From NCBI GenBank assembly GCA_965235115.1, contig OZ249436.1:21330001-21394000 (forward strand): a DNA stretch of 64,000 nt, in the 5' to 3' direction. The stretch is from Laetmonice hystrix. Its lineage: Eukaryota. Of this stretch, positions 9,431-40,140 are shown in pieces. The notes under the pieces were generated by a model, which did no database searches, was not told the origin of the DNA, and was given only the letters and a program-made list of their open reading frames with translations. The position numbers were made by a program, and so were the translations under genes. How positions within the stretch are numbered: position 1 is the first letter of the stretch; each line of letters opens with the position of its first letter.

Positions 9431-9900
9431 CATACTCTCTACGTGTTGAAAAAATAACGGGATCATTTTGTCCAAACCATACTCTCTACGTGTTGAAAAA
9501 ATAACGGGATCATTTTGTCCAAACCATACTCTCTACGTGTTGAAAAAATAACGGGATAATATTGTCTAAACCATACTCTCTAAGTGTTGAGAAAATAACG
9601 GGATCATTTAGTCCAAACAATACTCTCTACGTGTTGAGAAAATAACGGGATAATTTTGTCCAAACCATACTCTCTACGTGTTGAAAAATAACGGGATAAT
9701 TTTGTCCAAATCGAACTCTCTACGTGTTGAGAAAATAACGGGATAATTTTGTCCAAATAGTACTCTCTACGTGTTGAGAAAATAACGGGATAATTTTGTC
9801 CAAATCGTACTCTCTACGTGTTGAGAAAATAACGGGATAATTGTGTCCAAATCGTACTTTATGTATGTTGAGAAAATAACGGGATCATTTTGTCCAAACC
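9431..9900. repeat. ~47-bp minisatellite, ~10 copies, ~130 bp downstream of the paired-exon donor
   Basis: Unit CATACTCTCTACGTGTTGARAAAATAACGGGATMATTTTGTCCAAAC. Confidence 0.95.
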
Positions 9901-10028: not shown

Positions 10029-10194
10029 CTTCCCAGTATCTTAGAGACGCAGCCATGTGAAACCCGGAGTTGTCTGCTGATATCACAAGGCCGCACGCCC
10101 TGGTGAGCGAGCTCGACGATCCTCTGTCGGACGACATCAGGCAGGGGCCGTCCATTGACGAACACTCCACCCAGCTGGTTCACTCCGCCATGAC
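10029..10194 (-). CDS. Pax2/5/8: Pax2/5/8 paired-domain exon (N-terminal half of paired box), 166 bp, phase 1 to phase 2
   Basis: Encodes (G/S)[55 protein letters not shown], matching the PAX2/PAX5 paired domain as I recall it. Acceptor caacag|GT CAT at 10195/10194; donor GGA AG|gtaggc at 10029/10028, splitting the R codon before YYETG as in vertebrate Pax2/5/8. The next exon (YYETGSI..PGVIGGSKP) was not found in 1-10028, so it likely lies left of the window. Confidence 0.98.
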
Positions 10195-12223
10195 CTGTTG
10201 GTGACATCAACATGGTGTCTGCTTAGTGTGAGAACGTGTGCCACGTTCTGCCAGGAGTCTCACTGTTTGGCACATAACTACATCAAGCATCTACAATATT
10301 AGCTCTATTTTATTTTTTTACAAAAATGATTATGTATACCATAATAGATATAGTATAATCTATTCAAATGTATTCTTCAGATGTTAGAAAGCCGTAACTG
10401 ATTCTGACATATATCTCAGTACGTTAGAGTTCAGTTGGGTTCGTCTTGAAGTACTTGGCTGTAACCACTTTTGACATCAATAGCTACAGTTTCTTAAAGC
10501 AAGACACCACTCTTGGTAACACTCGGTGACACCACTCAACATATAAATATCTATTGATCTAAAGTGGTGCCACTCATTCTAATTATAAACCTATTTTGTT
10601 TGTGAGTCTTGTCTATGACCTCCAGTGTCAGGAACCGTGTATGAAAAGCGATAGATAAATCATATTTCATATCGGCTGTTAGAACCAAGCTGTATCAACT
10701 GACAAAGTTTGGAATGTATCTGTTTACAACGAAACGGAATGTGCATACATCTTCAGTGTGAATAGGTGTCGATCCCCAGGGGACACGCCGCCTATATTGG
10801 TGATTTAGTTCCATGTTTAGATTCGGGCCTCCGTGCTGGAAATAGGTGGTTTAAGCGTCACTAGCAACACGATATGGCCCTAACCGTGTCGAGTTTACAA
10901 ACATGGTATGTATGTATGGGCGGCCCCTTCTACCGCCCGTGCCGCGGGCCAGGGGCGGCCGGCCAGCGTTCAGCTATAGTGGGGGTGAACAGGGACGGTC
11001 ACGGATGGTTGACCACACCCCCTCTCGGGGTAGATTCTCACACCCTATTGGCCATTATTGGTCGATCAACGAAACCACATGATGTGTAATCGTAGCAGAC
11101 ATGAATAGTTCAAAGGACAAAGACAAATACACCATGTTCGTTTGATGTGAATTTGTGGGTTCGCCGATCCAGGATAACCTGGAGCTTAAAACATATTGCG
11201 TCATTTAGATACAAATATTTTGCTGATGTCTCCGTTATCAGTGGTGATATCACATAGTCTCGGTATGTACATGAGTTTGCCGATGTTGATAATTGTGCCA
11301 AGTATGTTGAGAGCCGTCGGGACGGTTGGATGATTGATGTATCATCAAGTTGTTAGTGTAGGGAGGTCGAAAGTCGCACCGAAAGTTGTTGTGTTGGAGC
11401 GAGGTTGGAGGAGCAGCGAATAGTAGTGACTTTACAATGCTGAAACCGGCGCAGTGTATGTCAGAGAGCTTCATAGTCTTCCTTTTAGTGACTGTGAAGC
11501 TCTCCCACAGCTACGGCTGCTGTCGACTCTCCCCTGCTCCCCAAGAGCTGGCTGCTGATGCTGGGCTGTGATGGGGATGATGATGATGATGATGTACAGG
11601 CAGTATCGGCTGCACTGACTCCGTGCACTTGACGGCCACTTTGTTGTAGTTGGTGAGTCCGTTATTCGTAGCCTGTTTGAAGACGGGTAGAGTTACCGTA
11701 AATATTCAACCCGCTCTAATGGGGACCGGGCTGAGGCAGTGCAAGGTTCCGCAGCGTACGACTGGCCTACCCGACTACCCAACCGTTGTGTGTGGCTTGC
11801 TGATGATTACAAATTACAGGCTTTAGCACACTTTACACTGTGAAGTCGTTCTACGCTGCAAAGCCCCGCGGCCGATCACAATTATTCCCATCCTTTTTTC
11901 TCAATATTTTTTTCCGTCTTTTTGGAACCATTTCTTGTGTAAACGCCTATCAGACCTAGTTCATCATAACTTCCTTGTCGTTGACCTACACTGACATTAA
12001 TAGTTGTACTATACGACATGGTAGTTGTTTTATCTTGTTGCTGTTCGTACACAAACACCCGTCGCCTTCAGCTTGAGGGTGATTGAGACAGTCCTTGTAG
12101 AGTACGCTGACCTGACGTTTGCTCGTGCACGCCATGTAGAGAATGATGTCCGAGTCAGTGGATCTAACGGGTTCTACAGCCACTAGGCGGAACGTGGCAG
12201 GTCTGCCGGCCAGCGGACCGCCC

Positions 12224-12281
12224 GACCGTCCGACCGTCCGACCGTCCGACCGTCCGACCGACCGACCGTCCGACCGTCCGA
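12224..12281. repeat. (GACCGTCC)n short tandem repeat
   Basis: ~7 imperfect copies of an 8-bp unit. Confidence 0.85.
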
Positions 12282-15200
12282 TCGCCGTGATGACCTGCCG
12301 AGCTCGACCACAACCCCTGACCTATATTGAACCCGGGGGGTGGGTGGGGGGAGTGGCACCGCTCGGGTACCTCTCACACAACATTACCCTACATCCTTGA
12401 ACAAAAAAAAACGTTCTTGTTTCGCCAAAAGAAACTTGCATTAAATTTAAACGATAAAATGAGACGTGACAAAGCTCTGATAAAAAGATAGCGTGGATAT
12501 ATTTATCATTGCCACACCATGTTTATCTATATTGCCGATAAAAAAAGAGTTGCCTTTGTGGCTGACATAGGCGACAGCTATTACAAACCATTCAGTGTAT
12601 ACGCTCTATCATTTCAGTCGGGGCTGAATTCGTATCTTGGCTATTGAATTCATTCATTCTATTGCAAAGCAAGTCCCCGTGTAGTATAGTCTGAATGACT
12701 GGGCTGTGTACTGCCTGTCGCACTATAATAACTAATTGAGTACGAAAGCATGTGTTGTGACTTTTTGCTCTATCATGCAATGTCTGGCTATAGTTGTGTT
12801 GTGTTAAATGTTGCAGGACATGGCGTTCATATTGCCAATCAACTCGCTCGGTCATCGTGAAGTACGTGAAGGGCAAGCAGCGGTAAATCTGTCACTCGGC
12901 TAGGTGTCACACAAAATATCACCGCCAGGTTCTGTCCGGGGGGCGGGGGTCTATAAAACCTCATCTATACCGGAACCTGGGACCCGGAGATAACGAGATG
13001 GGTTCCTTCAATTCTTGTCTAATTTAACTTCTTTATCATGCTAAAAACAAACTCAAACGCCCACTTCGGGTTCTCTCAGTGTCCATATAATATATACCCC
13101 GCCAACCCGCCACCTTCTCTGTTCTATAGAAGACCACCCTCAAGTCTTACATCCAGTCCCGTATGGACGAACCAAGGTCACTTATCGCCGACAATCTAGG
13201 CTAAGATGTATAATCTACGTGCGAGAGGTGACGTTCTCAATATACACCACTTCCGTGGGTAAGAATAAACGACCGGCGTCTCGTTGATATCAGATGTTCA
13301 CAAGTGCCATCAGGAGTCGTTTGTCGAGGGTCTGTCGACAATAGAACCGACCAGCCTCGAGCGATGCTGGCCGACTCCTCAGGCTGAAATGGTCTGGCTG
13401 TACGAGCGGCAGGTGAATTCCTTGTACGGTCAATGAGACTTGGGGTACATTCCGTCTCGGTCGTTCTGATACTCAAACAATACAGGTGTTATTGATGTCC
13501 AACTGGGCAGGTGAAACACCCAAGTATGCCTCTGTCAGAACTTAGAAGTGTACGCTGCCGCAAGGCGTGGTTTGAGGTGTTTTTAAGTCCAGGGTCGAAT
13601 ACCCTAGGGTTACATAGAACCTTTATGTATACAACGTTGAAGAATTGGCACAACATAAAACCTGTTGGTTATAACACTAACACATGCATGACCTTTGGAA
13701 CCATTATTCAGACGTCTTTGACTCGGCAATTATGGATGTCAATGTTATACATAGATGCCACAGTTTCTCAACTGTTTGCAGATACTTCTGTCAGCATAGA
13801 TGTTGTGAAAGGCGAGTCTTGCTGACCAGCAAGCGCCTGCCACTGGCCAATGTTCACCATCAGTAACGAGCAGCATTAACCTGAGGCGACTCAGCGGGGA
13901 GTAAATTCCCAATACTTGTGTATAGTGACCTCTAGAGAACACCAGCCATTGCTCGTGCACACCCCTCACTGCACATTGAGCACACAGTTCTGATCGCATT
14001 GTCGAGGTCCAAAAGTCACGAATTAAGTCGTTAGGAGGTAGGACCACCTCCACTCGCGAGTAAACGTAGCGTGATCTTCGATTAGACAGACCTGTCAAAT
14101 GTCATTTTGTATGAAAGTATAAAGGTATGAACCCCAGATGGTCAGAGCTAAGTTACTAAATTCATGCTTGTGTGCGTCAATATTTCTCCTCAAACGGAGA
14201 ACCCTCAAATATAAAATATAGTTTTATAGATACGCTCAGCAGGAGGCACATTGTAGTTTTGCTTGACTTGGTCTCACACATGTATAGTGTCACACACATG
14301 GATAGAGTCAATAAGAATATAACAGTGGACTGCACGTTCAGCCGCCGCCGACGACGAGACCTTATAATGTGGGTCATTTGATTTCTCCCCCGTTCGCAGT
14401 CAATATGTTTAATGCAGATCGTTACTGATGTGAGGTTGAGATAGTATGACGTCTATAGCAGGCCCCCAAGCCGGGTTGTTCGTTTTGCCGGTACGAAGCT
14501 CCAACCGAGCCCGGCTGCTACTGCTGCTGCTGGTACAGCGGCGGCTGTCGGTGCGACCAGCGCTGCAGGTCATTCAGCCAGCAGCAGCAGCAGCAGCAGC
14601 GCTGCATCTCTGCCAGCATCTCTATCGAGCGCCGCGGCCCCCTCATCGCCGCCCCGCCCGCCTTATCACCCCCGTGCAGGAGGCAGGCTGGGCGGCCTCC
14701 CCCACCGCCTCTCCCAGCACGGGGTCCCGGGTCTGGCCTGCTTGTTGTCCGGCTCAGACTCGCGCTGCCCGTGTACCATCCGACCAGGACACGTGCGGCC
14801 ATATCATTGTCCGTAATCAACAATGCACCTTGTACGATCAGAATTGTCAGCGGGTGAACGCCGGCTCTGTCACAACCCACTGGTCTACTCCCCGTCCTCC
14901 CTCCTCCCTCCGCCGGGAGTGGGTCCGGAGGCTCCCCTCCCGCCCCCTCCCCGCCCGCCGCACGGCCTGATCACGGCTTGTTGTGAAACCCGCGGTAGTC
15001 AAACGACCTGGGACACGGGCGGTGTTTACTCCGGGCAGATAACGGAACCGGGATGTGTTTCTCCTCCGGCCGGGCTGTAAGACCCGACTCGTGGAAGGCC
15101 TATATCACATACCATCCATCTTTAAAACCACTCACCTCTGTCAATATTATCCTCGCCCTCAATCCACCTTGTCCCTATATAAACTGTTGACATTTTTTTT

Positions 15201-18200
15201 ACCTTGCGGTAAACAGAAAACACATATAGAGAGGGGTATTGTGTTTGCTGACCTATGTCGTTCTCTGCGGGCAGGAGTGACTGACGGAAGGGGCAATTGG
15301 CAACCGATTTCTGTTACTAGCACATGTTGACACTCGGCACTCGAGCCACGAGTACGGTGTCACCCGCCAACACTCCATGTACAAAGGCACCGGTTGACAC
15401 ATGACATTTTACCGACAAGCCAAACACACGCCATGTGGGTCTCCGCTACCGGGCTGGCGACGTCCCTGCGACACGAACAACCGGCTGCCACCACGACAAA
15501 CCTCTCTCCAAACACCACCAATTATTGCACTCCAAATCTCCTGAAGCAGCTCCCGTAATTCTATTAACGCGTTGACGAAAACTGGCACTAAATATGGAAT
15601 TTTCAAACAAGGGCTGATCGGATTATATTAATAGCTAATACCGGTTGGGTTTGGCATAATGATGTGTGCAGAGTAATGCGTTCATTCCCTCAGGTGGTAA
15701 ACAATGCAATATGGTCGGAAAGGATAATCAGGGACGAATTAAAATGAAATCAAGCGACGACAAAATAACCGCTCCCCAGTGTAAACGTCAGGGAGAGAGT
15801 GGGAATAATTTAGTCGACGGTTGTTCCATTAGGTCCTATAGTCAGAGTGGCGCTTAGCTTTTGTATTGTCAAATTATGGGGCGCGTCTCCCGTTGGCAGT
15901 GACAGGTATAGAGAGGGTGGGTTGAGGGGACACAGGGGGTGGAGTAGGTGGGTTCCATTAAAGACACGCGATGTTTAGATGGATTGGTACCAAAAGAGAA
16001 GAGGGTGTGGTTTTATTGCGGTCGGGAATGAGGTTTCCGAGGGGGGAGAGCGGACCTTTGGGACTGACCGGGGTGGCGTGGGGTACGGCGGCCGGGGGAG
16101 GGGGAGGGAGGGCCGGGCGACACCCGCATGCTCCCCGCCGATCGCCACGCGGCCTCCCCGCCGCACGGCCCTCCCCCCGCCCGCCGCACGGCCCTCTCCC
16201 ACCCGCCGCACGGCCCTCTCCCACCCGCCGCCGGTAATTGCCCATGTATCGTCCCCAATGCACACCCGTCCCCCACCTGACTGCTAGCTTGGTGTTGGCA
16301 CGAGCACCGGGGTGGATGATATAGTGAAACAGGGTTGTTATTTGGTCGTCCGTTTGGAAACTTAACCCGACCAACCGGGTTTTTATAGCCGGTATAGCCG
16401 GACAAAGACGGCGGCCGTTGTGGCCCGGTTTGTGATGGTCCTGCCCTCCCGTCACAACCTTCAAGTCAACGCCTTCTCTACCGTCAACCGGCTCCCAACA
16501 AACTCCTCCATGGGCAAGGACCATTGACAGGGTTTCAAGTTTACCTGAACTCGCCAGTGGACACCAGCAACATTCTCCCAACACGTTACACTCAATGACA
16601 AGTCAACCACTAGTATTCTCCCAACCCGCTACTATTCGAGCTCCGTTGTTGACAAGCACGGTGGTGGAACCACTCTCTGCAGCCACCTGCTTGGATGAAT
16701 CCTTTGATAGGAGACAATAGTTCTTTTATCTCTGTCATCGAGCGTGTGACAGTATCAACAGTATGGACTTCGCGGCGATATAAGTGCCGTTAGACGTCAA
16801 CTCTAACCCTTCGTTCCCTTCCGCTACACTTACCCCCACCGTTCCACCCCCACCCCCTCTTCTTCTCGTATCAACTCCAACTTTTTTCATTATCATGAAG
16901 TGGTTTAAGTAGACCACTTCAAAAAAAGACAAGCATGAAGTCGAGATGTCCAACACCGTAACGTGAAGATAGAAATTAAGTTATCAATAAGTAGAATTAT
17001 TTGAAAAGGCGGAATATACATAAACGGGTGAATGAGACTAGAATACAAAGTGTGCATGATGTGGTGTATGATGTTGGTAACCCACCTCTGGTGTCGACCG
17101 GGGCGTAGTACCGGTCGGGCGTTACTGTCCACATACTTCCTGGCATATCGCGACCAAACATCGTCTTGGGTTTTATAAAAATATATAATGATCACGCTGA
17201 AGTGGTACTCCTAATGTCCGTATTTATGTACGGCGATGGTTCCGTACAAGACCTCTATGTCCTCGTCAAGATCGCCTACAGAGAAAGGCCGGTGTCACAA
17301 GCGGTATTCCATGGTAGACGGTTAACCCGGCAAACTGTGGTCTATACAAGGTGCAGTAGGCACACAGCCAGCCGTGGGACACTTGGGTAAAGTATACTCC
17401 CCTGATGTCAGAACACTCTGCTACATTGAACCCAACTGAAGCAGACAAGCTGCAGTCAAAGAGGGAAAAGCAGGCGACCAGCTATAGCTAAGGAAGCAAC
17501 CAACATGTTGGGTGTTCACTAGTGTTAGGGCTGCCTATACGGTAGGGCGACTTTCACCGTTGGTTGAGTACGGCCCGACTGTCGGATGGCATGCTATCTG
17601 ACCGCCGAGTATATTGTCTCGTCGGTGGGGCGGTCGGTATAAGAACCGCCAATTAAGTCAAGCACTGATGTGCCCCGGCCTTACCAGTACAGCTCCTAAA
17701 GGACCTATACCGTGCACACATTAGCAGCCCCGGTGAAATCGTCAACCAACCAGGCGGCAGTCAGCAACACGCCCCACGGTTGGCTGCCCCCGCCGGGCAA
17801 GGGTGGCGGGGGGGGGGGGGTGATGAAACCCATCTCGTAACCCCCACAGGTATAGGCTATACCCCCTCCCATCCCTGTACCCCCTACCCCCACCACTCAC
17901 CCAACCCTCTCCTGATTCAGTTGACTGCACTAAAATACACACGATGACGTTTGTAACTGTCGCCTTTAAAGATTGCATGGAAAATGGAGTCCGGGATTGT
18001 GTGACGCGACGTGTCAATTTAAAGTGATACTCTGAGGGTTGGGGTGATTGGGGGAAACGTTCTGAGAACACCCACCTCACCCCACAACACACCCACCCAC
18101 ACACCCACACCCCACAACACACCCACCCACACACCCACACCTCCAGAAGACAGTCAGGCATTCCGTACAGTTAGGGGAAACTCCATAACTTTGCCAGACA

Positions 18201-18614
18201 TAACTCAGAAGACCCAGAGGTTTTCCACGTCGCGCGAAATTCCGTGGAGCGGAACTCAAATTCCGGGCAGCTAAGGGACAACGGGATTTGGTTATCAGTA
18301 AACTCCAGCATATTTTCCGTTTGAAAATAATTAATAACATACACTGCAGATATACAGAGCTCCAATCAGTAGGGCCTCATTAACTCGTTATAATTATATT
18401 GGTCTTCAGTCCCCTGTATCTTTGATATCCTTCAGAGAACAGCTGGAATTCGATAGGCTGGTAAAGGTTAGAGCTATTAGGTGCTGGCACATCTTTTATG
18501 CAAATACGCCAATACCATAGTTATTAACTATAGGCCTACGTCAATTTTGAATTCTGAAAACATAACACGTGTGCATGAAGATGTGATGTCCTTGACGACA
18601 AGAGGTATGTGCAC

Positions 18615-19047
18615 GAAGTTATGGATATGATTTCCTATTATAACATGAAGTTATGGACATGGTTTCCTATATCATAAAATTATGGACATGGTTTCCTATT
18701 ATATCATGAAGTTATAGACATGATTTCCTATTATAACATGAAGTTATGGACATGGTTTCCTATATCATAAAATTATGGACATGGTTTCCTATATCATGAA
18801 ATTACGGACACGGTTTCCTATTATATGATGAAATTATGGACATGGTTTCCTATATCATGAAATTATGGACATGCATGGTTTCCTATTATATCATGAAGTT
18901 ATGGACATGGTTTCCTATTATATCATGAAGTGATGAACATGGTTTCCTATTATATCATGAAGTGATGGACATGATTTCCTATTATATCATGAAGTTATAG
19001 ACATGGTTTCCTATTATATCATAAATTTATGGACATGGTTTCCTATT
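18615..19047. repeat. AT-rich 30-33-bp minisatellite, ~13 copies
   Basis: Unit CATGAARTTATGGACATGGTTTCCTAT(TAT)AT with length variants. Confidence 0.93.
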
Positions 19048-20783
19048 ACGACACGTGACAAAAATATTAAACATCTCTCGAGGGCTGTGCACAATTTTCA
19101 TAGAGCTAATTTCCTAAACACAAGTCTCTAAAAACGATACTTTTAATTGAAGTTATCTATTTGTCTTCAGAAACGAAATAATCAATGAGAGTCCACTATA
19201 CGAGCGGGTCGTCAAGTTGTCCAGAAAGCTGGCCGTTGTCCGGCTTCAGCTTGTGACGGCTATAGCTCTGTATAAGTGGGTCAGAACGAGGCGCCCCGTT
19301 CTATCAGGTGTCAGGCAGTGGGGGGTAGGAGATCCGGCCAAGTCGACCGGCTATAGTCACCGCCCGCCGCCTGACAGCCTCTGTGGGACCGGCACAAAAT
19401 GATAGATACGATTGCGAGGCCGGCACAGGTGAACGTGACCTGGGTGCCGTTATAGCAGCCATGGCCACCCACCCGCCTGCCCGCCCGGTGGGTCGGTATT
19501 CGGCCAGTTGGTCGGCCTCCCGACCACGGCCCCGGACCGTCTCCACCGGCCGGCCGGGTGCTGCAGGCACGCGGCCGCGGCGGTCACTCGGGAGTCGGGC
19601 CGCCGTCCAACTTGGCACCCGACCCTACGAACTGACCAGTGGTCACCACCGCATCCAAGTGTTCAGCTGACGGTCAAACATCTCAGGCCAAAACCCCCGG
19701 GGATATGTTAACCATGGCCATCGTCCATGGAATCTAGCGATGTCATTAAAAACGGCACTGTATATATTGGATTGGGCCAAACACCGCGGCCAGACATTAA
19801 AGGCCTGATTATAGATACACACTGTACGTACCTAGTTTGGCTAGAAAAGCCAAGGCGTGTTGAACCTCGGCCAAGTAGGTGTAACTGATATCATATGCAG
19901 CCATCAGTGTTGTATATCGGAGTATGTGATCTCTATAGGAGGTCTCGGTCCGAGGAGAGAAACAGACGTCTGGGTGGTAACGATTCACAAAGTCTTCACT
20001 CTCGTCTCCTCTCTCAGCTGAGCAACTCTGGCTGAGCAACTCTGCGCGCACTGTGGCTATACGTTGCCAGAAGCTTTGTCCATCTGCAGGCACAACCACA
20101 CTGCCACTGCCTCCTGCGTGTGCAAAACCAACTTAACCAGTGTTTCCACGCCATCTAAATGACTAAAAAGGCCCGGTTCATTTACCTGCAGCTTTCTGCG
20201 GCGCCGTGAACGCGAGCTTCGTTAACAAGTTGGCCGTTCTGCCGGCCCGGCCGCTCGGCCTGCCCGCCGTCCGGTAACGAAATTCGGCCGCATCCGGCAG
20301 ACAGGTAATTGTTTTTGCCCATCTCATATGCAACTCTACAACTCTGGTGCCCGTGGCGAGCCAGGCAATGTCTCTCTACAAAGACGTGGTGGGGAGGGAG
20401 GGGGATCGAATAGGGTGTGTGTGGGGGGGGGGGAGGGTGATATGGTATGTTTACAACCTGCTGTCATTCACCAACGTACATACAGATTCCGGTACTGTGT
20501 CCCCGCCACCCAATTATAAAATTTGAAAAAAATGCACTTCTGTCGGCCTATATGAATGCAATTTGTTATAGGGGCTCAGCCCTACGACAGAGTCTGTGGC
20601 ATATCAATGTGCTTGAACCCATAATGTCAATATGGGTGCCATATTGTTTGGGAGGGGGGAGGGTTGATGCAACATCGTCAGCAACTCTATAGGCCTAATA
20701 CATTATACCTACGCCTAAATGATGTCAAACCGCAAGTGAGTAGGACAGGTGGTGTTGGCCTGCGCGGTGTTAAAGGTACTTAC

Positions 20784-20984
20784 TTTTACAGGAGTGGAAA
20801 TACTCCATCATGGTCCTGTTATGATGGTAGCGGTAGGATGTGGTAAGATCCATGGCCGGGTCAGGATGGACGGATGGCGGGGGCGCAGAACCCCACGGCC
20901 CGGCGGGGCCCGGGTACTGGTGGTGGGCCAGACTCGCCATCATTATACGTTCGTCTCCGACACCTCCTCCAGTACGTGACTCCA
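20784..20984 (-). CDS. Pax2/5/8: Pax2/5/8 N-terminal exon (proximal first exon and/or 201-bp phase 1-1 cassette)
   Basis: Encodes ...MMASLAHHQYPGPAGPWGSAPPPSVHPDPAMDLTTSYRYHHNRTMMEYFHSCK and ends at a consensus donor AAA A|gtaagt (20784/20783). It is phase 1 and joins in frame to the paired exon (CK-S-HGGVNQ). MEYFHSCK parallels vertebrate PAX2 MDMHCK. In-frame ATGs at 20943, 20940 and 20853; pyrimidine-rich acceptor ccttctctaccag|TG at 20985/20984. Confidence 0.85.
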
Positions 20985-21239
20985 CTGGTAGAGAAGGTAA
21001 GGTCCAGGCCGAGCTCTAGCCAGCGCAGTCAGCCTATAGGTGTGTATGGGTGGTCGTTGGTGCACCCAATGTGGCTGGTGTTGTTGATGTTATGTTGGAC
21101 CTGCTGCTGCAGCTGCTGCTGCTGATGATAATGATGGTGGCAGGGATGAAGCTACTGCTCCTGCCGCCGCCGCCGCTTCACGGTGGTTGGACCGTTGACA
21201 CGGGTAGCGGGTGGGGGGCGGTGGGGCGGTCGGCCTGGG

Positions 21240-21820
21240 TGGCGGCTATGGTCGGCTGGTCAGTATATCAGTCTCCGGGACTCTGCCTGATCACTCGCCG
21301 TGCGTGGAGTGCCAAGTCAGCGTGACGTGTGTCTCTCCGAGTCGTGTGTGACTAGCTCTCTCCCGAGGACGTCCCTATACCGTGTACGGTGAGAGTATAT
21401 AGACCGGACCCAGGCCGGCTCTCTCCCGGGGTGATTAGACTGTGAGTGGTGGTTTTGACGGCCACTGCTGGGCCCGCTGAACGGTCAGGCACTGATCATA
21501 CAACCAGCCTCAGTATCAACTGTATACGGCGACGATCGCTTCACTACCAACTGCGCGTCACTGCTCACGCCGTTATCTGGTCGTGCGTCGCGCGCGCGCA
21601 TTCTAATATAATTGGCAGAGCGCGAGCGCGCCCGCCCAAATTGCCGTGCCCCGTGGCGATCGAGCACGGGAAAAGTCACTCCTATTGATCGGGCGTTCCC
21701 GCCTCGCGGGCCTGGCCCACTTGCCGCCCCAACACCGCTGATTGTGCCTTTCAACGGGTCACGTGACCAGTCCAATTTCCAATCTCGTGCCTGCTGGCGT
21801 GACGGGCGACCAGATTAACG
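21240..21820 (-). promoter_or_regulatory. CpG-rich putative promoter of the proximal Pax2/5/8 first exon
   Basis: Dense CG/CGCG; CCAAT boxes (ATTGG 21611-21615, CCAAT ~21772 and ~21779); 12-bp palindromic E-box GGTCACGTGACC at 21757-21768; lies immediately 5' of the 20784-20984 exon. Confidence 0.55.
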
Positions 21821-24017
21821 TTATTAATAGACGACCGAGGATATACGATAATCTCATGTCAGCCCATACCTCCTCACTCACAGCATTTCTTCCTTTTTAT
21901 TTTGTTTTTTATTAGATATTATGATTATCAGCATAATCAACATATTTCTATTCTCTTCCCTCTCCCCTCTCTCCTTCTTAGGTCTGTTTATTGTAAAGAA
22001 GTTATAGTCTCAACACTATTAGAGTTGTATAGAACACACACTGTATATACCAGTCAGCGGAACAACCTTCACTGTATATAGTAGAACTATATATAACTCC
22101 CATTTACTGGTCATCATGCAGGTGTTGAAATTAAGCACCAGAGGATATTGTTGTAGAAGTCGGACAATGTTCCAGCCTCTAGTTTCTTTCAGCAAGAATC
22201 TGTCACGAGTGACAGAGTTGTCCTCAAGTTTTAGTTGTTAAGATCCGTTCTGCAACTTGCCTTGATTGTTACACATACAGCACAATGCCGTGTGATTTTT
22301 ATATGTCACTGGAGGGAAGCTAATCGGTGGTAATATTTCTTTGAACGGATGATTCATGGCGTAGAAGATGTGAGAGTCGACAGTTTTGGACAATAGGAAA
22401 GTATTAAAGTACCCACTCACAATAAACCAACCGACCCATGACGTCAGTACTCGGCATTCACCAGTAACACTGTAATCATACCAGGCATAAATAATGTGCC
22501 GACTTTATTGTTCTGATTAGAAGTTGTATTTCCTGCACAGTGCTGGGTTAACACCTGTGTATTGGTGTGAGAGGAGGGATAGGATATACCCGTGTGAACG
22601 TGAGAACGGTATACGGGTTGGAGGGGTGAGTAGTATATGGCAAGTTACCGTTAAATCAGGCCTTAAACCGTGAAATAATAAGCCCGGTGTGAATGGAGAC
22701 CCAAATATATACAAGCCAGGTTTTTTTCTAATAATGCATGTATAAGAGAGCCCGAGTCAGTCCCCTTCATCACACAAGTGTCGTGACATTTATATTTGGG
22801 TTCGGTGACTGTCACAATGTTCTGTAGATCCAATAGTGAACAGGGTTCCTATAGTCATTGGTGGCTTTAACCACTTTCTGGGCTGAATCTTTGGTGAGAA
22901 ATATTGTCAACTCTAAGTATAGCTTATTTTGTGTAGGTGGGGAAATGGTTGAGTGCGTCAACAGCAATTAGATTCATAGATATACACAACAGTTAAGTCA
23001 GTATATATTGAAAGGTGATACCAATAATTATTATCAAGTATTGCTTTGGTGTCATTATTTGTCCAAGGGAATAATTATTTCTATTTTTGTATAATTCATT
23101 CGCAATTCTGGTGCGCCAAGTCCTGCATGGCCCAATGTGTTATAATAGATTTTTGGAACATGATTGTATATTGGGTCAAACGATGAGTAAACGTGTCTCA
23201 TATCGTTTGAGCATTCATGTTATCAAACAGTTGTTTAACCACATGGGCTGATTGCATAGCTGATGATGTTCGCTACTACACCATCAAATATTGACTAACA
23301 CTTCCAACCAATTAGCCCAAAGTGTCCGAGCCATCGGAAAGTCGGACTGATTTGTCGCCGAGAGGTCATTATTGTAACAACTGCTTGTCGGCACCAAATT
23401 ATACACAGGGATGGTCAAATGGTGTACGGTTTGAGCCGGAAGACAAACAGCGATGTGACTGGTGTTGGAAGTGAGAGGGGTGGGTCGTGCTAATCAGCGT
23501 CACGCTGGGCTGGAGCCGGGCGGGGTACGGCGGGAGGGGTGGGGGTATGGTGGGGGGTACGGCGGGCGGCGGGCCGGTGAATGACAATCGGGCAACGATC
23601 GATAGGTGGCGCTGCATGTCTCGGTCGCCACTTATATGGTTATGGCACGACAGCAATATGGCGCGACCGCCGCCGGCTAAGAAATGACACCAAAATGGAC
23701 GCCAAATTGCACGCCGGTCGTCGTGTATCAATTAAACAAATTAATTTCTATAATTTATTGGTCGTGAATTATTGAGCGAAGCTTGTTGTGCGAGGATCGT
23801 ATACAGAGGAGCGGTGAAACGAGGGTAAGCACGTGTCTATTGTGGTCGGGTCCCGCCCCGGTCAGGTGTAACAGAAACAAGGCACGTCGGCACGGCCCCA
23901 GACGACCGACTCCAGGTGTCACGGGCGGGCGTCGGCCGTGGTAACAACAAAACCTTTGTCACTATACACAGCACAGAGAGACGACAGCGGTCTCCGCCCC
24001 TTCTCGATACAACCACC

Positions 24018-24487
24018 GCCTCCTTCTCCCTCCCACTCCTCCTCCCCCTCCTCCCATTCCTCCTCCCCTCCTCCCTACTCGTCCTCCTACTTCCCCTACT
24101 CCACCTCCTCCTCCCCTCCTATTATACTCCCCCTCCTGCTCCCCCCTCCCCCTCCTCCTCCTCCTACTTCTCCCCCTTCTCCACCTCCTCCTCTACCCCC
24201 TCCTCCACCTCCTCCCCTCCTCCCCTCCTATAGATCTATACTCCCCGTCCACCCCCTCCTCCTCCCCCTCCTTCTCCTCCTCCCCCTCGTTCTACTTCTC
24301 CCCCTCGTTCTTCTTCTCCCTCTCCTCCCCCTCCTCCCCTCGTTCTACTTCTCCCCCTCCTCCCCCTCCTCCTCTCCTCCTCCCCCTCCTCCCACTCACC
24401 CTCCTCCTCCCCCCTCCTCCACCCTTCCCCCCCTCCCCCTCCCCCACCCCTCCTCATCCTCCTCCTCATCATCATCATCCACCTCCT
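24018..24487. repeat. Polypyrimidine (CCT/CCCCT)n low-complexity tract
   Basis: ~470 bp almost exclusively C/T on the + strand; yields spurious Pro/Leu/Ser and Gly/Glu/Arg ORFs. Confidence 0.95.
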
Positions 24488-25825
24488 ACATTATAGTTCT
24501 GACATATGTTTAACTGGGTTGCCACCATTTATCTCCGAGAGAGAAAAAATGGCATGACATCCTTCAATAGCGTTCGTCGCTGACGGTGTAATAGTCTCTG
24601 GCTAATTCATGAACAACGTCAACCGACTCGATCCATCACTGAGCTTCGCTACCGCCGACTCGCAGAAAACCGACCGACCCATATAGATGCTGCGCTCTAA
24701 TGTCTTATTTTGCCCCTAGCCATGTGACGCAAAGCCTAGTACCTTGTCGGGAGCCTATAGCAGCAAAAACGGTCTTTTCTGATTCCTACAAGGTCGATGA
24801 AAAAAAATCAAAGAAAACGACCGAAAATTGTTTTATAGTATTCGTCACGCCGTCACAATTTCATTTCTATGGCGATTGGTGGGAAACGGGTGTGCGGGGC
24901 GGAGATAAATCTAATCAAAGAGGAAGCGACGAGGCCTGGGAATTACCAACGACAGACCGAATCCATCATGCTCCATGAAGGTATTTCTACCGTGTGCCTG
25001 CCGCGTCAACGTCCAAATTACGATTAATTTGCCGCCCTGTCTACATGAGGAATCCACTACTGTGTATACAAGCGATGGGCCAGGATGTTAGACTGATGGT
25101 TGGCACAGTCCTTGAACTCTTAATTCTGATCTCTGAAACACAGAACATCCTGCACCGGGCAGAGAGCCGGGTGTCCTATTGAAACATGAGGTATACATGC
25201 TCTTGCATGCTCCTGCATGCTATACAGCTGTAATTCAGATATTTAGGGACCTATATATCCATGTCAGTGCGGTCACAACCCATGATTTCTATATACCAAG
25301 CACTGCCCCCTGAAATAGCGCCTTGTTTTGGGTTTCTATACGTATACAAGCAGTGTACGCCCCCCGCCCGCGGCGTGCTTACAACGGTTGTCCACAGAGA
25401 ACAAACTGCCATATTCCGCTGCCTCCACGGCCCACAGCTCCTGCGGGAGCCCAGCTCGGTGCTCACACAACCAGGGACCTGCATGATATCGGAGGATGGG
25501 TCTAATACATCATCGGGGGCAGCGGCAGCCGGGGAGCGATAACACGTTGCTCAAAGACCGGCACCAGCTCTATCGGGCAGCGACCAGCGTAAACTGGACC
25601 GCCTTTGACCACCGCCCAGCCCGCGTCCAATGGACGCTCGGGGACTGTACAGGAAGCGCCGAGCGCAAGGCACCCTAGGTCGAGGTGTGTGTCCATTCAG
25701 CCGACCTACCCAGTTCCTTTCTTCTCACCTCTCCGTATCGTTCCCATTGGTATAACACCCACACGGGTCAACCAGCCAGAACCACTATACGGCTTGATTC
25801 ATAACAGTATGGAGGCAATCTCAGC

Positions 25826-26930
25826 AGTCAGTGCCTGCTGGGACTGGGTGGACGTTCCCTGGTACAAACCCACAGTCTGTGCCTGCTGGGACTGGGTGGA
25901 CGTTCCCTGGTACAAACCCACAGTCTGTGCCTGCTGGGACAGGGTGGACGTTCCCTGGTACAAACCCACAGTCTGTGCCTGCTGGGACTGGGTGGACGTT
26001 CCCTGGTACAAACCCACAGTCTGTGCCTGCTGGGACTGGGTGGACGTTCCCTGGTACAAACCCACAGTCTGTGCCTGCTGGGACTGGGTGGACGTTCCCT
26101 GGTACAAACCCACAGTCTGTGCCTGCTGGGACTGGGTGGACGTTCCCTGGTACAAACCCACAGTCAGTGCCTGCTGAGACTGGGTGGACGTTCCCTGGTA
26201 CAAACCCACAGTCAGTGCCTGCTGGGACTGGGTGGACGTCCCCTGGTACAAACCCACAGTCTGTGCCTGCTGGGACAGGGTGGACGTTCCCTGGTACAAA
26301 CCCACAGTCTGTGCCTGCTGGGACTGGGTGGACGTTCCCTGGTACAAACCCACAGTCTGTGCCTGCTGGGACAGGGTGGACGTTCCCTGGTACAAACCCA
26401 CAGTCTGTGCCTGCTGGGACTGGGTGGACGTTCCCTGGTACAAACCCACAGTCTGTGCCTGCTGGGACTGGGTGGACGTTCCCTGGTACAAACCCACAGT
26501 CTGTGCCTGCTGGGACTGGGTGGACGTTCCCTGGTACAAACCCACAGTCTGTGCCTGCTGGGACTGGGTGGACGTTCCCTGGTACAAACCCACAGTCAGT
26601 GCCTGCTGAGACTGGGTGGACGTTCCCTGGTACAAACCCACAGTCTGTGCCTGCTGGAACTGGGTGGACGTTCCCTGGTACAAACCCACAGTCTGTGCCT
26701 GCTGGGACTGGGTGGACGTTCCCTGGTACAAACCCACAGTCTGTGCCTGCTGGGACAGGGTGGACGTTCCCTGGTACAAACCCACAGTCTGTGCCTGCTG
26801 GGACTGGGTGGACGTTCCCTGGTACAAACCCACAGTCTGTGCCTGCTGGGACAGGGTGGACGTTCCCTGGTACAAACCCACAGTCTGTGCCTGCTGGGAC
26901 TGGGTGGACGTTCCCTGGTACAAACCCACA
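25826..26930. repeat. 48-bp minisatellite, ~23 copies
   Basis: Unit GTGCCTGCTGGGACWGGGTGGACGTTCCCTGGTACAAACCCACAGTCW; explains the 376-aa and 408-aa periodic ORFs. Confidence 0.98.
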
Positions 26931-27365
26931 TTTCCCTATACTACTACGACTCCGAGCTGTAGCATGCAGTGCAGTATGTGACGGTCACACTGAGCAGTGG
27001 TCCATGCCGCCCATGTGTGTGTGTCTACACAAACATCTTCTTTATCATTTACACTGATACGTTTTTAATGAAGGCCTTACTCCTCCATGTTCTTTATTGT
27101 TGTTTTAGTAATTAGTTATCATCATTATTATCATTGCCATCATTAGCATTATTACAATTATGCATACAATTATCATCATAGCCACCCGTCGCTATCATCA
27201 TAAATCACTCATCAACATACATTATGTCGTTGAGTGAAAACATGCCGACAATGGGCGATGGTGGAGCGGGTCCCTTGGCCGGCATCAAACGAGTTGTGCA
27301 GGCGGCAGTAATACCATGAAACACAGCCTCTGTGATCTCCGCGCAGTTATTTTACGCCTCCCTGC

Positions 27366-27482
27366 CCTATCAAAGACGGCAGATTGTGTCGGTCACAAAA
27401 CAACCTATCAAAGACGGCAGATTGTGTCGGTCACAAAACAACCTATCAAAGACGGCAAATTGTGTCGGTCACAAAACAACTA
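27366..27482. repeat. 38-bp tandem repeat, 3 copies
   Basis: CCTATCAAAGACGGCARATTGTGTCGGTCACAAAACAA x3. Confidence 0.92.
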
Positions 27483-28969
27483 CTCATCAAGGAGGGTCCT
27501 TGGTTGGAGCTGAATTCATGTGGTTAGGGTAAAATAGAATGCACGGCTGTTGGCTGTTTATAAGGATGCTCTCATGCTGCCGCGAAAAGATGAGGAATTA
27601 TACTCAGATTATAAACACTTGACTGACTCTATACTAAACATGTGTGCCCTACCTCCCCTCTGATATTATTAATATACACTCTATTACCGCTAGGCCATCG
27701 ATGTTTCAAGCTATTTTGACATCGACAAAGAACACCCACACATCAACACGCCCATGAAATACACGTTGAAATGCATGCGCGCGTGCGTGAGGGTCTGGTC
27801 TAAGTGCACGCGCGTGTACTCATGCCACAACCATTCACTGCATGGTATAAAAATACCGTCCCGATATAAATCTATCCCCACTGAGATTGACCGGGAGACC
27901 TGCCCACTATAATAATGTTACCCAGCAGGAACATTTATTATGTATGTGTGTGCGTCAACTACCGTTTACCCGCGCGCACTGCGTAAAGACAAAGAAAGAT
28001 ACAAAGAAAGACAAGCATTATACATAATTCCCCCTGTCTGTTATGTCATAAGGTTATGAGAACGCTGTGAGCACGTGTAAAGAGCAACACGTGAGGAGTA
28101 GGAACGCCTCTTCCAGCCTAGAAATGGCTCATGTACCCTGGTCCCTGTGTGTAACCGTCACTGGTGTTTCCAATCAGTTCAATGAGCGGGCCGGGGGTGT
28201 CATCGGGGGCCAGGGTCCAACAACGGGCCGGCCACGCCCGCCGCCCCGCCAGACACTGCCGCCCGCCAGACCGCCAGACCGCTGAGGCGTGGCCAACCGA
28301 AAACCAACGGTAAAAAACTAATTTACCAAGGTGGAAATACTCAGGCAAAATATGTGGGTTATTCGGTGTTACATGATTCCGCCTGAGTCAACCCAGACCT
28401 GCGTCTTTTTCTGTCTTATATTATTTCTTCTTCATTCATTTTTTCCGTTGTTTTACTTCTCAATTTCTTTCTCTATTTCTTACTCTGCGCCTCTCTTTTT
28501 CTCTCAGTCTTCCACAGATTCATCATGGTTAACGTGACTTTCATCGCCAGCGTTTGCTCTAAAGGGGCGTTGCGGTTTGGAGTGATTCCCATAATACTAT
28601 CATGCGATTAAAATAACATTTGGTGTATACGCTGCCAAGATTTATTTCTATTTTTATGTGTCTGGTGCATGTTTCACATGCAGGTCCATTCGATTGACAA
28701 GGCCTTCCCGTTCTCAACACATTTCACAGTATAGTGGCCTATCGCCAGACGCCCACATGTTTGCCTGTCAACGTTTATCTGCCTGGTCCCCGTTCCCACC
28801 CTGGTCCCTTGGCGCGGGCACGCCTTTGTCGACCACGCCCGTCCGCCGTCCCCCGGCCGCCCGGCCAGCCGTCGGCCTACAGGCGGCGGCCGCCCGTCGT
28901 CATCAGGACCGATACCATGGCCCGTACACAATGTACGACTACATGATAATCTCGGGCATCTCCGTCAAG

Positions 28970-29003
<34 letters not shown>

Positions 29004-32000
29004 TCCTCCTCCTCTTCCCCCCTATATAGTGACGGTGTGAAGCCAAGCGTACGACGACGACGTCCCCCATGCCCTTCGCAATCATGTGCTCTGTGACGTT
29101 GTCGGAGTGTCTCTATAGACCACCTGGGAGAGCCAGCGGCGGCCGGCGTGCGTGGCCACTCGGAACGTGTCGGAGCGGCCTCCCCCGGGACCCGCGGCCG
29201 GCCGAGGCGGCAACGGCGCTGTTGGGAACGGTCGCAACCCGTGTACAGAAAACAGCCATATGCATCATCCACGCTCCGGTCGCCGTTACATAAGGACCGA
29301 CAACAAAACATGCATATTTCATACGGCGCTATCATGCAGTATACAGCTGGGTGTGTTATGGCGGCGTCTTATCACCCTCTTGCCATCCTTTCTACTGCCT
29401 GCTCGAGCCATTCTCTCCTGTCTCAGCCACCCTCCCCCTCCACCCCCTGGGGAGCCTCCGCCATATTCCCGCTGCATACATTTATGTATAACCATAGCCA
29501 TTCTCATTCATAGCCCATTGTGGCAGCGTCTGCATGACTTGTATTGGTGGGCCACAGGTCCTGACCGCTAGGTCCACTGACCACACGGACCTGTGCTGGG
29601 GTGGCCGGCTTGGGTTGGCTCTCGGGTTACCAATAGTACATTTGTAATGAGGTGTTATACCTATTCTCACAGAGATAGGCTTACAGGCAGTATCCCGGTC
29701 ACCACGGGGCTATATAGGCCCATACACGCTCATAACATACGGCTCTACGTGGTAGACATTCAGAATATCATACATGGGGATGTAGGAAAGGAAATTTTAT
29801 TCGGATAAATGTAGGATTTGAAAGAGAATGGCATGGAGATCGTCACCTCAGCAGATGGGAAATAATGGTGTAATGTGTCAGCCAGGACTGTTCCATGAAG
29901 GCCCCTACAATCAGTCTCCTACTGGAGGATAGGGAGGCCGATATTATACCGAGGTGTTGGCCGCCTGCCACCAGCTGTACAGAGTTAATATATCTCCTGA
30001 TTGCTCACGTCAGTTCGCTGAGTTCCAACACCCTCATCCCACCGTTAATTGGGTGTCTTATCATCATGCTTATGGCGTTCCAACACGCTCGCACGCCTTG
30101 ACCTTCGCCTGGTCGGGAGGCGGGTATCATCCTCGGTTCTCGCCCGGTCTCACATTGCCGACACTCACCGCTCGACGCGCCCCCTGTCGGCCATCCCTGC
30201 CCCTAACACCCATACCAACATTCCGATCTCAACCGCTGGAGTCGGGGCTGGCGGTAATCAGAATTAATGACACAAGTCAGTCCAAGTAGAATGGTTGCAC
30301 AAATAAACATTTTCATTGGCCTGGACATTGTTGTTACGAATACTATTCACAGTAACGTATTCCACAAAACATTATATCTTATTTGCTGTCGCCTGTGAAA
30401 TGACTCGGTTGAAATGAAGAGGCAGCGAGACATTTCTGTGGTAAACGTCAAATAAAGTGTCAGATTTCAGAATGACGGTCTTTGAGACTCTTTATGACGA
30501 TGGTTTACCTGGCCTTCATAAACATTCCTTGAAGATCTCTCCAGCCATATAGGCACCAAAGGAATTCGGCCAACACCATGGGATAAACAAAACCTGACGT
30601 AATGCTGACATCTGAGTCAGAGGTAAACCATAGAAGAAGTAAATATATATTTCTATATGTTAATCAAAATGATGATTCAAAGTTTATAACAGAAGAAAAG
30701 GGGGGTCAGTCTGTGACATGCCAGCTGGGATCAACGTCTAGCTCCGTTACTGAGAACTTACTTCAGAATGCTATTTGCAGAGGAAGAAGTGAACTAAAGT
30801 ACCAAGCTGTACGTCTCTATAATAGTTGTTACAGAGTCTGAAAGGTAAGCATGTAATTTGGCTTCAAAAGAGAAAAAAGTGCCAGTTCAATGCCTGTTGC
30901 AGTGATATAAATATGGGCATACACAACATATCATGAAGAATACAACACTCGACGCCACATCAAAGAGCCGAAGTGCCGACGTGTATATAGTAAGGTGGCA
31001 TGTCTGTGTAATATGGCTAGGTTCCAGGCAGTGCGACCCCTACCAACCCACCAAAGCGACTATTTTTGCATGTTTTCCTCTATTAATCACATACCAGTAC
31101 GCACCAATGGCCAAGGGTGGCGGGTCCCAGATAGCAATCGCCTGTGCTACCTGGGCTTTGCCATTGGTATGTAACCCCGGTCTCCCTAAAACGTTGCCGC
31201 TGTACCAATTAAAACTGTTTAAGATGTCACCATGCTTGTTTCTGATGGCTATAATAGTCAGGTCCCGGAGTCCTATATGACATAGTAATTTTGTGGAACA
31301 AAAGGCACAGTTTGCCAGTCATCCAATGGGTCATTACTGTCATTATACGAGCATCTTGTATACATAGTGTGGTTTTAATGTGCGGTGTGGGGGTCAGGGC
31401 AGTACGCCCGAGCTGGGGTTCGGGGACGGCCCCAAGGGGTAACGTGGTGGGAGGGAAGAGGTCACGCCCCCTGGTGTCAAATACGGTAAGGACGACATTA
31501 AGCTGGAGTTTGACTGTATGAAGACAACCCTGTCATTAACTATACTATATTATATTAGCTCCTGCCTACACTAAATTCTTCAGATTTGGTAATTTTATAC
31601 TTATTAGGGCTTAGCCTGAAGCTTTTGTAGAATAGGCTCTGTTTCATGGAAAGATAGAACCACTGTATATAGTGACTGCAGTTGTGACGGACGAATCCAC
31701 TACTATTTTCTATAGGAGCTGAAAGGTACAATGATGCATCCATGGAAATTATCTCATGGAAGATTTATACATGAATACATGTGTCGGCGTACGATACCAG
31801 GTGACATACACATGAATACATTGTATATCTATATTTTAATAATACCGGTATCAATCTGACCTGCTATTGGATACATTTTTATAGGTTAATATATTAGATG
31901 GGAAAGTTAATCACATAGGCAAAGGATGTAGGCTTATGTCCTTGTCCCATGGTATATCGACCCAATAAACATGAACAGTCAATTTGAAAACTGAAACATG

Positions 32001-33171
32001 TTTTGTCGGATCTATACATAGTGAGGATATCAAATCCTGCTCTTTCAGTACTGGTTTTAAAATTTCCCTCTCAATAGTACGGCCGTTTTAACTTATCAAC
32101 AAAATCTTCCGACGGATAACGACATGCTATACATCAGTTATATGCATATTTTATCAGATTCAACCATCAGAAACGTTATGAAAGTGAAATTCTCTAAACG
32201 TAGCTAAACTGTATAGATAAACTGACAAAATGTAGTATCAGTGCCTAGTTCAGGAAGCGGAGAAATGGGGGTAAATGGTATTAAACTCATTATAGCGGCC
32301 CATTGACAGTGGAGAGCACCGTTATGGTTGGCTTGAGGATACGGATAACTCCTTATCTTTAGTTCCGATTCACTTAGTGGTCGGCAAGTTTTATCTGGCC
32401 GACCATGGCTTTCCGAACCCTGGGCATATTGTACCAATTGGCCGGGTAATGTGACTGGAGGCACGGCGCCGGGGATCGCGCTAGGCGTGGCCGAGGGAAC
32501 AGCGGGGTTCTGGCAGGGCTTTATCCGAGCCTGGCGGGGGGACGGGGGACCCCTGGCCGGCGGCCCGTACGGCACTCCGACAGGCCGTGTCCGGGGCCCG
32601 GCGGGGGACGGCCAGAGGGGACGACCGCAGGCTTTATCGCCGTCAACAGGCGGCGGAGCCGGGCGTACTGTCGGCGGGAAACATAGCCCGATATACGCCG
32701 ACCACTCTCTCTATACATCACGCCCGGATCACAGCGCCTGATCCGGAACATGGCCCAGACCCGCGGCTATACTCTGTAACATATGGGACTCGACATTCCC
32801 GCTTCACTCGCATTTACATGCAGTTTAAAAGAAATGGTGTAGCCCTAGATTCTTTTTAGATATTTAGATAGGGGCCATTGACCTTTGATATTGACACGCC
32901 TAAAGTGACTTTGCATGCACGCCTAAAGTGACTTTGCATACAAGAAGAATATAGTTGTTTCTGTTTTTTGTTTAAAAATAAATCACCTCGCTCCTCATCA
33001 TTCAAAATATTGTATCAGCCTATGCATGTCAGATCTAGATAAGGACAAGGGCATGTCTATAAGTCTCCCAATACGTATAGACACGTATAGACATATTCAT
33101 CCATAGTTCCTCAACTTTTATAGCTCGGATTGTAAAGCAATCAGTTGTGTAATGGGACCCAGTTTTCGTAC

Positions 33172-33475
33172 CTTTGGCTCGGCCGGTTTTCCCGCGTCCA
33201 TAAGGATCCATCCTCGCTAACGGCCCCAGACTGTCATAGTCGAAGGCGTGCGGACCCATGGCGAAGTTGACGGCCTGGTCGTAAGAACAAGGAGACCGGG
33301 TCGGGTATTCCACCTTATGGGGATGATAGTGTTCCTGGGCGCACTTGGCGGCGTAGGCAGCGGCGGCCGACTGGTAGTGGTCGGCCGGGTGGTGCGGAGC
33401 GTAGCCGGGGCCGGCGTGGTGGCCGTGTGCCCCGTACGGGCTCGAGTAGGCGTCCGGTAGATACATCATGTCCAT
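33172..33475 (-). CDS. Pax2/5/8: Probable distal alternative first coding exon of Pax2/5/8 (His/Tyr/Ala/Pro-rich, 101 codons + 1 nt)
   Basis: ATG at 33475; MDMMYLPDAYSSPYGAHGHHAGPGYAPHHPADHYQSAAAAYAAKCAQEHYHPHKVEYPTRSPCSYDQAVNFAMGPHAFDYDSLGPLARMDPYGRGKTGRAK has strong GC3 bias and transcription-factor-like composition. Composition drops to AT-rich exactly at donor AAA G|gtacga (33172/33171). Phase 1 fits the paired exon (K-G-HGGVNQ) or the 20984 acceptor. I found no other DNA-binding-domain exon in between. Coding status is fairly secure; assignment to Pax2/5/8 is inferred. Confidence 0.7.
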
Positions 33476-33589: not shown

Positions 33590-33650
33590 ATCCCGGCTAG
33601 CTTTTCCCCGGCTTGCATAGATGACATTTATATAGTGGCATTGGCCTGCT
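33590..33650 (-). promoter_or_regulatory. Candidate TATA promoter for the distal exon
   Basis: TATATAAA on the minus strand at 33634-33627, CCAAT at 33644-33640, ~150 bp upstream of ATG 33475. Confidence 0.35.
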
Positions 33651-39679: not shown

Positions 39680-40140
39680 TGGCGTCAGACGTCATATGCC
39701 AGGTCGATACGATTGGCGTCAGACGTCATATGCCAGGTCGATCCTGACAATTGGCGTCAGACGTCATATGCCAGGTCGATCCTGACGATTGGCGTCAGAC
39801 GTCATATGGCAGGATCCTGAAGATTGGTGTCAGACGTCATATGGCAGGATCCTGACGATTGGCGTCAGACGTCATATGGCAGGATCCTGACGATTGGCGT
39901 CAGACGTCGTATGCCAGATCGATCCTGACGATTGGCGTCAGACGTCATATGCCAGGTCGATCCTGACGATTGGCGTCAGACGTCATATTATGCCAGGTCG
40001 ATCCTGACGATTGGCGTCAGACGTCATATGCCAGGTCGATCCTGACGATTGGCGTCAGACGTCATATACCAGGTCGATCCTGACGATTGGCGTCAGACGT
40101 CATATACCAGGTCGATCCTGACGATTGGCGTCAGACGTCA
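39680..40140. repeat. 38-bp minisatellite, ~12 copies
   Basis: Unit TGGCGTCAGACGTCATATGCCAGGTCGATCCTGACGAT with internal deletion variants. Confidence 0.95.

Follow-up and report, generated by a model that had tools for sequence, protein, structure and literature searches.

The 64,000-nucleotide (nt) stretch of the Laetmonice hystrix genome analysed here (contig OZ249436.1 of assembly GCA_965235115.1, positions 21,330,001 to 21,394,000; hereafter the window) contains an exon that encodes the N-terminal half of a paired domain of the Pax2/5/8 type and, upstream of it, a proximal coding exon at 20.9 kb, a distal coding exon at 33.4 kb and probably a further one at 19.9 kb, all of them on the minus strand (Table 1). 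The positions, reading phases and junction residues given for the distal, proximal and paired exons in a first-pass annotation of this DNA were recovered unchanged.

Table 1. Features of the window around the Pax2/5/8 paired exon; a slash marks the exon-intron boundary.
Feature	Position	Strand	Remarks
Distal first coding exon	33475-33172	minus	304 nt; ATG; 101 open codons plus 1 nt; donor AAG/gtacga, phase 1
TATA-like box	33628-33634	minus	159 nt upstream of the distal ATG; weak promoter evidence
CpG-rich stretch, likely proximal promoter region	21444-21943	minus	CpG observed/expected ratio 1.28
ATG-free stretch, read as a long 5' untranslated region	20944-21498	minus	continues upstream of the 20984 acceptor
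Internal acceptor and 13 cassette-only codons	20984-20944	minus	acceptor ...ttctctaccag; open after phase-1 entry
Proximal first coding exon	20784-20943	minus	conserved start ATG 20853 (MDLTT...HSCK, context gccATGg); 30-codon upstream extension; phase-1 donor AAA/gtaagt
Probable third phase-1 5' exon	19904-19832	minus	ATG; 24 codons ending L-A-K-L; donor TAG/gtacgt
Shared paired exon	10194-10029	minus	166 nt; N-terminal half of paired domain; phase-1 acceptor
Tandem arrays	1-1048, 3617-4221, 9431-9900, 18615-19048, 25825-26930, 39680-40143, 40903-41249, 48653-49465, 51280-53300

The paired exon matches the PAX family of Pfam (E 3.7e-31), and its 54 amino acids (aa) are 100% identical in 99 of 120 relatives among the matches listed, the named ones being mostly PAX2, PAX5 and invertebrate Pax2/5/8 proteins. 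The subfamily assignment was made by sequence similarity, without a tree, from the N-terminal half of the paired domain only, and this half is of the Pax2/5/8 type. A leader typical of the subfamily stands before the paired box as well, as seen in the matches of the proximal exon to leech Hau-Pax2/5/8, to Sepia and Idiosepius, and to the tick protein P0055. No RED subdomain, octapeptide or K/R-rich region was found within the window, the remainder of the gene lying past its low end. The shared exon begins H-G-G, and at least two ATG-bearing exons end in its phase, as the alternative exons 1A and 1B of PAX5 do. Because any coding exon that joins the acceptor at 10194 must end in phase 1, the "all-phase-1" arrangement that the first-pass annotation had singled out as a modular feature is forced and is no special property of this locus. 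In silico, the reading frame stays open across the joins of all three proposed forms, with 102 residues before HGG in the distal-paired form, 54 in the proximal-paired form and 169 in the distal-proximal-paired form.

Within the 54 kb upstream of the paired acceptor, 32 candidates run from an ATG to a phase-1 donor, and the distal exon is the longest of them; donors were scored on approximate frequencies taken from general knowledge. The fraction of its codons with G or C in third position (GC3) is 0.75, which was not used as a test since most of the null for it comes from tandem repeats. When 1.84 billion protein representatives were scanned in full with HMMER, four relatives of the encoded peptide were found (P0121-P0124; E 3.9e-28 to 2.1e-4), which are 61-85% identical to it; all four start at M-Y-L and have 26 invariant columns in common with the window peptide. 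They remain alike up to the window's donor and are unrelated directly after G-R-[AV]-[KQ]-G, as expected if they read through into the intron, and in all four the residues past the donor fit a phase-1 G/GT[AG], whereas none of three other placements tested does. By these comparisons the distal exon is genuine conserved coding sequence, and its donor and the phase of that donor are conserved too.

What is conserved in the distal leader is a string of short motifs (M-Y-L, K-C, R-x-x-C-x-Y-D, F-x-Y-D and R-M-D-P-Y-x-R-x-K-x-G-R) and a basic end. The leader had been described as His/Tyr/Ala-rich with a basic end; the basic end is indeed shared, but the His/Ala-rich middle is the variable part and is largely missing in two of the four relatives (P0123 and P0124). 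AlphaFold2 gave no confident fold for the alignment of five distal sequences (mean pLDDT, predicted local distance difference test, 50; pTM, predicted template modelling score, 0.21), no Pfam family matched any of the distal-type peptides, and an ESM Atlas query with P0124 returned no usable match. The distal leader thus stands as a conserved, unannotated family of 70-120 residues with invariant motifs open to direct testing. Two further candidates for this family were rejected: metagenome locus L001 (37% over 41 aa) reads as a chance match in an unrelated frame, and P0035 matches a Pinctada leader of a different type. Upstream of the distal ATG, and in frame with it, lies a five-codon frame (33559-33542, minus strand), overlapped by words that we take to be CRE-like (cyclic AMP response element) and E-box-like; the core promoter of the distal exon may be here, and not at the TATA-like word (33634).

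The last 23 codons of the proximal exon, counted from the ATG at 20853 (others lie at 20943, 20940, 20811 and 20808), match the N-termini of Pax2/5/8 from tick (P0055, 16 of 22 residues identical), leech, Sepia and Idiosepius, and that of P0087. By eye, the proximal-type motif is present in three of 22 rows of the supplement to PMC5333810 (leech, Sepia and Idiosepius; this and the other papers cited by number are covered in their accessible portions). The leech leader has an E-Y-F-H-S-C-K-S identical to that of the proximal exon and a short M-M extension upstream too. In P0087 the proximal-type leader is joined directly to HGG; the leech and cephalopod proteins have 19-20 additional residues between HSCK and HGG, and no exon matching this insert was recognised in the window. 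A weaker GT lies 6 bases upstream of the proximal donor (20790, minus strand; CCT/gtaaaa) and would put a Cys at the junction, as P0087 has before HGG.

No ATG occurs in the 556 bases directly upstream of the first proximal ATG, where 5.2 would be expected; of the 1072 non-repeat ATG gaps of the minus strand this is the longest, and ATG is the most depleted of the 64 trinucleotides there. The "CpG promoter" claimed for this exon holds in relative terms: the stretch beyond the gap exceeds the 90th percentile of the CpG ratio (1.06 over 127 bins), but the window as a whole already stands at 0.76. On the plus strand, 608 nt without ATG (21248-21856; about 10 expected) make up the longest non-repeat gap of that strand and overlap the proximal promoter and 5' untranslated region (UTR), possibly the mark of antisense transcription or of the CpG-rich region itself. 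Protein comparison identifies the proximal exon as a conserved first exon of Pax2/5/8, and a promoter near 21.5 kb would give it a long 5' UTR. The conserved N-terminus in other animals and the ATG-free leader bear out the earlier proposal that it serves as a first exon in its own right, and both upstream exons proved to be real, conserved coding exons that end in phase 1, the distal one through its four relatives and the proximal one through Pax2/5/8 N-termini.

The earlier list of 5' exons appears to be incomplete, as it missed the probable third phase-1 ATG exon at 19904-19832. The leader of tick P0055 ends, after its MDLTT segment, with a similar segment (Y-x-Y-L-x-[DE]-V ... L-A-K-L-G), so that the order is that of the window. 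In an end-anchored comparison with the pre-paired segment of P0055, the third exon ranked first among 1242 candidate donors (raw score 24), 12 leaders having been tried after the likeness had been spotted by eye among 120 proteins. Its GC3 is 0.50, and no ATG depletion is seen upstream of it. We regard this exon as probably real.

Taken together, we favour, with a probability of roughly 0.7, the reading that separate promoters serve separate first coding exons, two and probably three of them, on one paired exon of Pax2/5/8. One gene would be transcribed from separate promoters, each of which would start its own first coding exon: the distal at 33.4 kb, the proximal at 20.9 kb and probably the third at 19.9 kb. 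Each would end one base into a codon and so be spliceable onto the shared exon at 10194, and the choice of promoter, most likely by tissue or stage, would set the N-terminal leader. The distal leader would be a mostly unstructured tail whose conserved aromatic and acidic motifs recruit a cofactor, which is the role we favour for it, and its basic end, adjoining the paired domain, could help DNA contact or nuclear import. We infer the distal-to-paired splicing, the promoters, their tissue-specific use and the functions of the leaders.

Several observations count against this reading. The evidence that the exons have their own transcription starts is indirect: the proximal exon has its ATG-free leader and a CpG-rich stretch, the distal one a weak TATA-like word. 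Promoter evidence for the distal exon is thin, since TATA-like words are common (the minus strand of the window has 53) and a short upstream ATG precedes the exon at 33559. With a 608-nt gap on the plus strand as well, the minus-strand gap may be due in part to the character of the sequence there. Support for the third exon comes from a single tick gene model, at a low score, and BLASTP gave no alignment between it and P0055. As for the distal exon, the first-pass annotation had asked whether relatives of its peptide continue into the paired box, and none of the four does among the protein representatives searched. Distal leader and paired box were found together in none of 134 candidates of 178-2000 aa in a word-indexed search, an insensitive one that also missed P0055 for the proximal exon, nor is a distal leader present in any of the 22 rows with HGGVNQ in the PMC5333810 supplement. 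The phase match of the distal donor to the paired exon, finally, has a prior of 1 in 3.

The alternative that survives best concerns the third exon, and we give slightly less than even odds to the view that 19904-19832 is not a first exon, being either a chance likeness or an internal cassette entered from the proximal donor via an upstream acceptor. The failed BLASTP alignment, the GC3 and the absence of upstream ATG depletion all fit such a view, as does the P0055 gene model itself, where a single chain holds the MDLTT segment, 31 residues of spacer and then the LAKL segment; in the window, moreover, the frame of the third exon is open for 100 codons before its donor. However, no other of the 1242 candidate donors scores as well on the tick segment; a Met lies at nearly equal distance, the donor is a good one (TAG/gtacgt), the order relative to the MDLTT exon is the same, and the in-frame AGs upstream of it have weak pyrimidine tracts (0.50-0.56).

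Less well placed, and compatible with separate promoters, is the proposal that distal-promoter transcripts also use the acceptor at 20984, so that the proximal exon doubles as a 201-nt cassette (20984-20784) and a leader of ~170 aa is a regular product; we consider this unlikely. The acceptor itself is a good one: its pyrimidine fraction is 0.75, compared with 0.56 for the paired exon's own, and it has a CTGAC upstream and 27 nt free of AG. The proximal cassette is one of only three symmetric phase-1 candidates with strong sites in 23 kb, the distal-proximal-paired join is open in silico, and such acceptors occur at 1.43 per kb on the minus strand, a rate at which, by our own estimate, the ~70 open bases that precede the ATG would contain an in-frame acceptor with a chance of a few percent. 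Small inserts before the paired box are known from leech, Sepia, Idiosepius and Mytilus sequences (PMC5333810 supplement), and a look through 21800-21030 for the donor of a non-coding upstream exon gave no strong site, the one found scoring 4.8. On the other hand, G or C stands in the third position of 3 of the 13 cassette-only codons, compared with 39 of 53 after the ATG (Fisher p 0.0012), and none of the four informative proximal-type proteins (leech, Sepia, P0055 and P0087) has distal-type sequence in front. The ATG depletion reaches 515 nt upstream of the acceptor, as expected for a continuous 5' UTR, and weak in-frame AGs are easy to come by, with nine upstream of the third exon. Of the 201-nt symmetric cassette put forward at first, then, the good acceptor and the open join stand, but the 13 codons have no coding bias and no homologue shows the form, which, if it exists, is probably a young or minor one. 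Between the third and paired exons (15280-15203 and 15264-15136, minus strand), two more cassette candidates overlap each other, both symmetric, of phase 1 and with strong sites (donor scores of up to 11.1); by eye, this region (15280-15136) has no likeness to the leech and cephalopod inserts.

We think it likely that the distal exon belongs to Pax2/5/8 and would be spliced to the paired exon, with which it agrees in strand and phase. From the distal donor to the proximal exon (~12 kb), the minus strand has 116 open frames of at least 32 aa, and none of them contained another relevant Pfam domain; the only matches were three tandem-repeat frames, and the paired exon was detected as a positive control. 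No homeodomain motif is present in the six frames of the window. Both P0124 and the vertebrate PAX2 leader have K-x-D-P-[YF]-x-A-M-H-P. In shuffles the best pair was equalled in 1 of 100000 and three related leaders in 19-88 of 100000, with 504 pairs tested; a profile of the distal family found no leader below E 0.77 and did not detect the likeness to PAX2, and we treat this likeness as a lead, not a result. The distal exon might instead open a different gene or transcript, such as that of a transcription factor whose remaining exons are short, not recognised or located beyond the window. This would fit the lack of any sequence joining it to the paired box and the nearest cluster of its peptide by language-model features in the ESM Atlas (Homeobox A1, 0.92, with recognition below the tool's threshold, as for a generic transcription-factor N-terminus), but we judge it improbable given the shared strand, the right phase, the motif in common with PAX2 (as a lead) and the homeodomain and Pfam scans, which gave no relevant match.

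Three sequencing runs covering 19100-23900 have even depth across introns and no splice joints, and so behave as DNA of one sample. Over that stretch a second haplotype is recorded in 31 substitution rows. One of them, at 20904, changes Ala to Thr within the non-conserved extension of the proximal exon; none lies in the conserved proximal part, the 20984 acceptor or the third exon, and their number is too small for a test of constraint. Around the third exon, ~750 bases (19491-20239) contain no listed haplotype substitutions or indels, compared with ~5 substitutions expected from the average of the stretch, an interval picked after the fact. Young tandem arrays, with units of 26-61 nt and 82-97% matches, fill the introns and the upstream region, and their open frames give spurious Pfam matches. 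No further gene is obvious by eye in 34100-64000, a region outside the Pfam scans, where additional upstream exons may exist.

If separate promoters do give separate leaders, paired-box probes would pool several transcripts, and gene models with a single start would miss the other exons. A bolder and, to our minds, doubtful extension is that an ordered array of alternative Pax2/5/8 first exons was already present in the protostome or bilaterian ancestor, with the MDLTT and LAKL order kept between an annelid-like animal and ticks and the distal exon a cofactor-binding module ancestral to the vertebrate PAX2/PAX5-1B leader (K-x-D-P-F-x-A-M-H). Were this so, promoter and splice choice would do part of what vertebrates did by duplication into Pax2, Pax5 and Pax8. 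Throughout the animals, Pax2/5/8 patterns the brain and the sensory and excretory organs. Alignments in comparative studies of invertebrates mostly cover its paired domain and octapeptide (PMC4625944), and neither the accessible text of that paper nor that of PMC4488758 treats the 5' exons of Pax2/5/8. The literature and annotated proteins searched, with subscription papers and several supplements beyond reach, described neither the distal leader nor a conserved array of first exons; searches with five leader motifs returned unrelated papers only, and the distal and proximal motifs were absent, among the terms asked, from the supplements of PMC6065069, PMC13591056, PMC12046283 and PMC4488758 as far as these were accessible.

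Among arthropods, the hypothetical protein P0055 of the tick Hyalomma asiaticum resembles the window in a leader that starts MDLTT and ends L-A-K-L-G, corresponding to the proximal and third exons in the same order, but it chains both segments in one protein and has no distal-type sequence. The unnamed protein P0087 likewise shares the proximal-type leader, joined directly to HGG, and lacks distal-type sequence. The proximal-type motif of the window stands at the start of Pax2/5/8 in leech, Sepia and Idiosepius, whereas none of the 22 accessible rows of PMC5333810 has the distal or the third leader. In the same source, six Mytilus Pax2/5/8 transcripts share their downstream sequence but fall into two groups with unrelated leaders, and in two of the six transcripts HGG is preceded by 8 additional residues; the authors read the groups as possibly two genes plus splicing and, in the accessible text, do not map the exons. 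At least three further leader types occur on invertebrate Pax2/5/8 (bivalve M-Y-Y-M-P, bivalve M-Q-N-T-W, and a long Thr/Val/Gln-rich type ending K-G; P0035, P0098 and rows of PMC5333810), and tBLASTn of the P0035 and P0098 leaders against the window gave no clear counterpart. Modular N-termini of invertebrate Pax2/5/8 are thus already visible in print, though not mapped to exons in the accessible text. Amphioxus also has a single Pax2/5/8 gene with extensive alternative splicing, but in the accessible text the splicing is described for the paired domain and C-terminal exons, and the words "promoter" and "exon 1" are absent (PMC4488758).

The closest known design is that of human PAX5, which has two promoters: the upstream one contains a TATA box and starts exon 1A, the downstream one has none and starts exon 1B, and either first exon is spliced to exon 2 (PMC2504290), confirming the first-pass annotation's appeal to alternative first exons in vertebrate PAX5. 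The window has the same order, a TATA-like distal start followed by a CpG-rich proximal one, and the shared exon starts H-G-G in both. The individual exons do not support homology: in the end-anchored ranking the distal exon reached ranks 52-279 of 1242 against five 1A-type leaders, and the proximal exon 129-186 of 1242 against PAX5 1B or PAX2 leaders. The leaders differ in length as well, being 15-16 residues in vertebrate PAX5, compared with 102 (distal), 24-54 (proximal) and 25 (third) on the paired exon here; the long distal leader is to that extent unlike the vertebrate ones, as had been claimed, but long and varied leaders (~30-100 residues) are common in invertebrate Pax2/5/8. Since PAX5 has alternative first exons and Mytilus two leaders in transcripts, the design is not new, and the surprise in finding it here is limited by the PAX5 precedent; what this locus adds to the known design is a conserved long distal leader, undescribed in the literature searched, and a probable third start.

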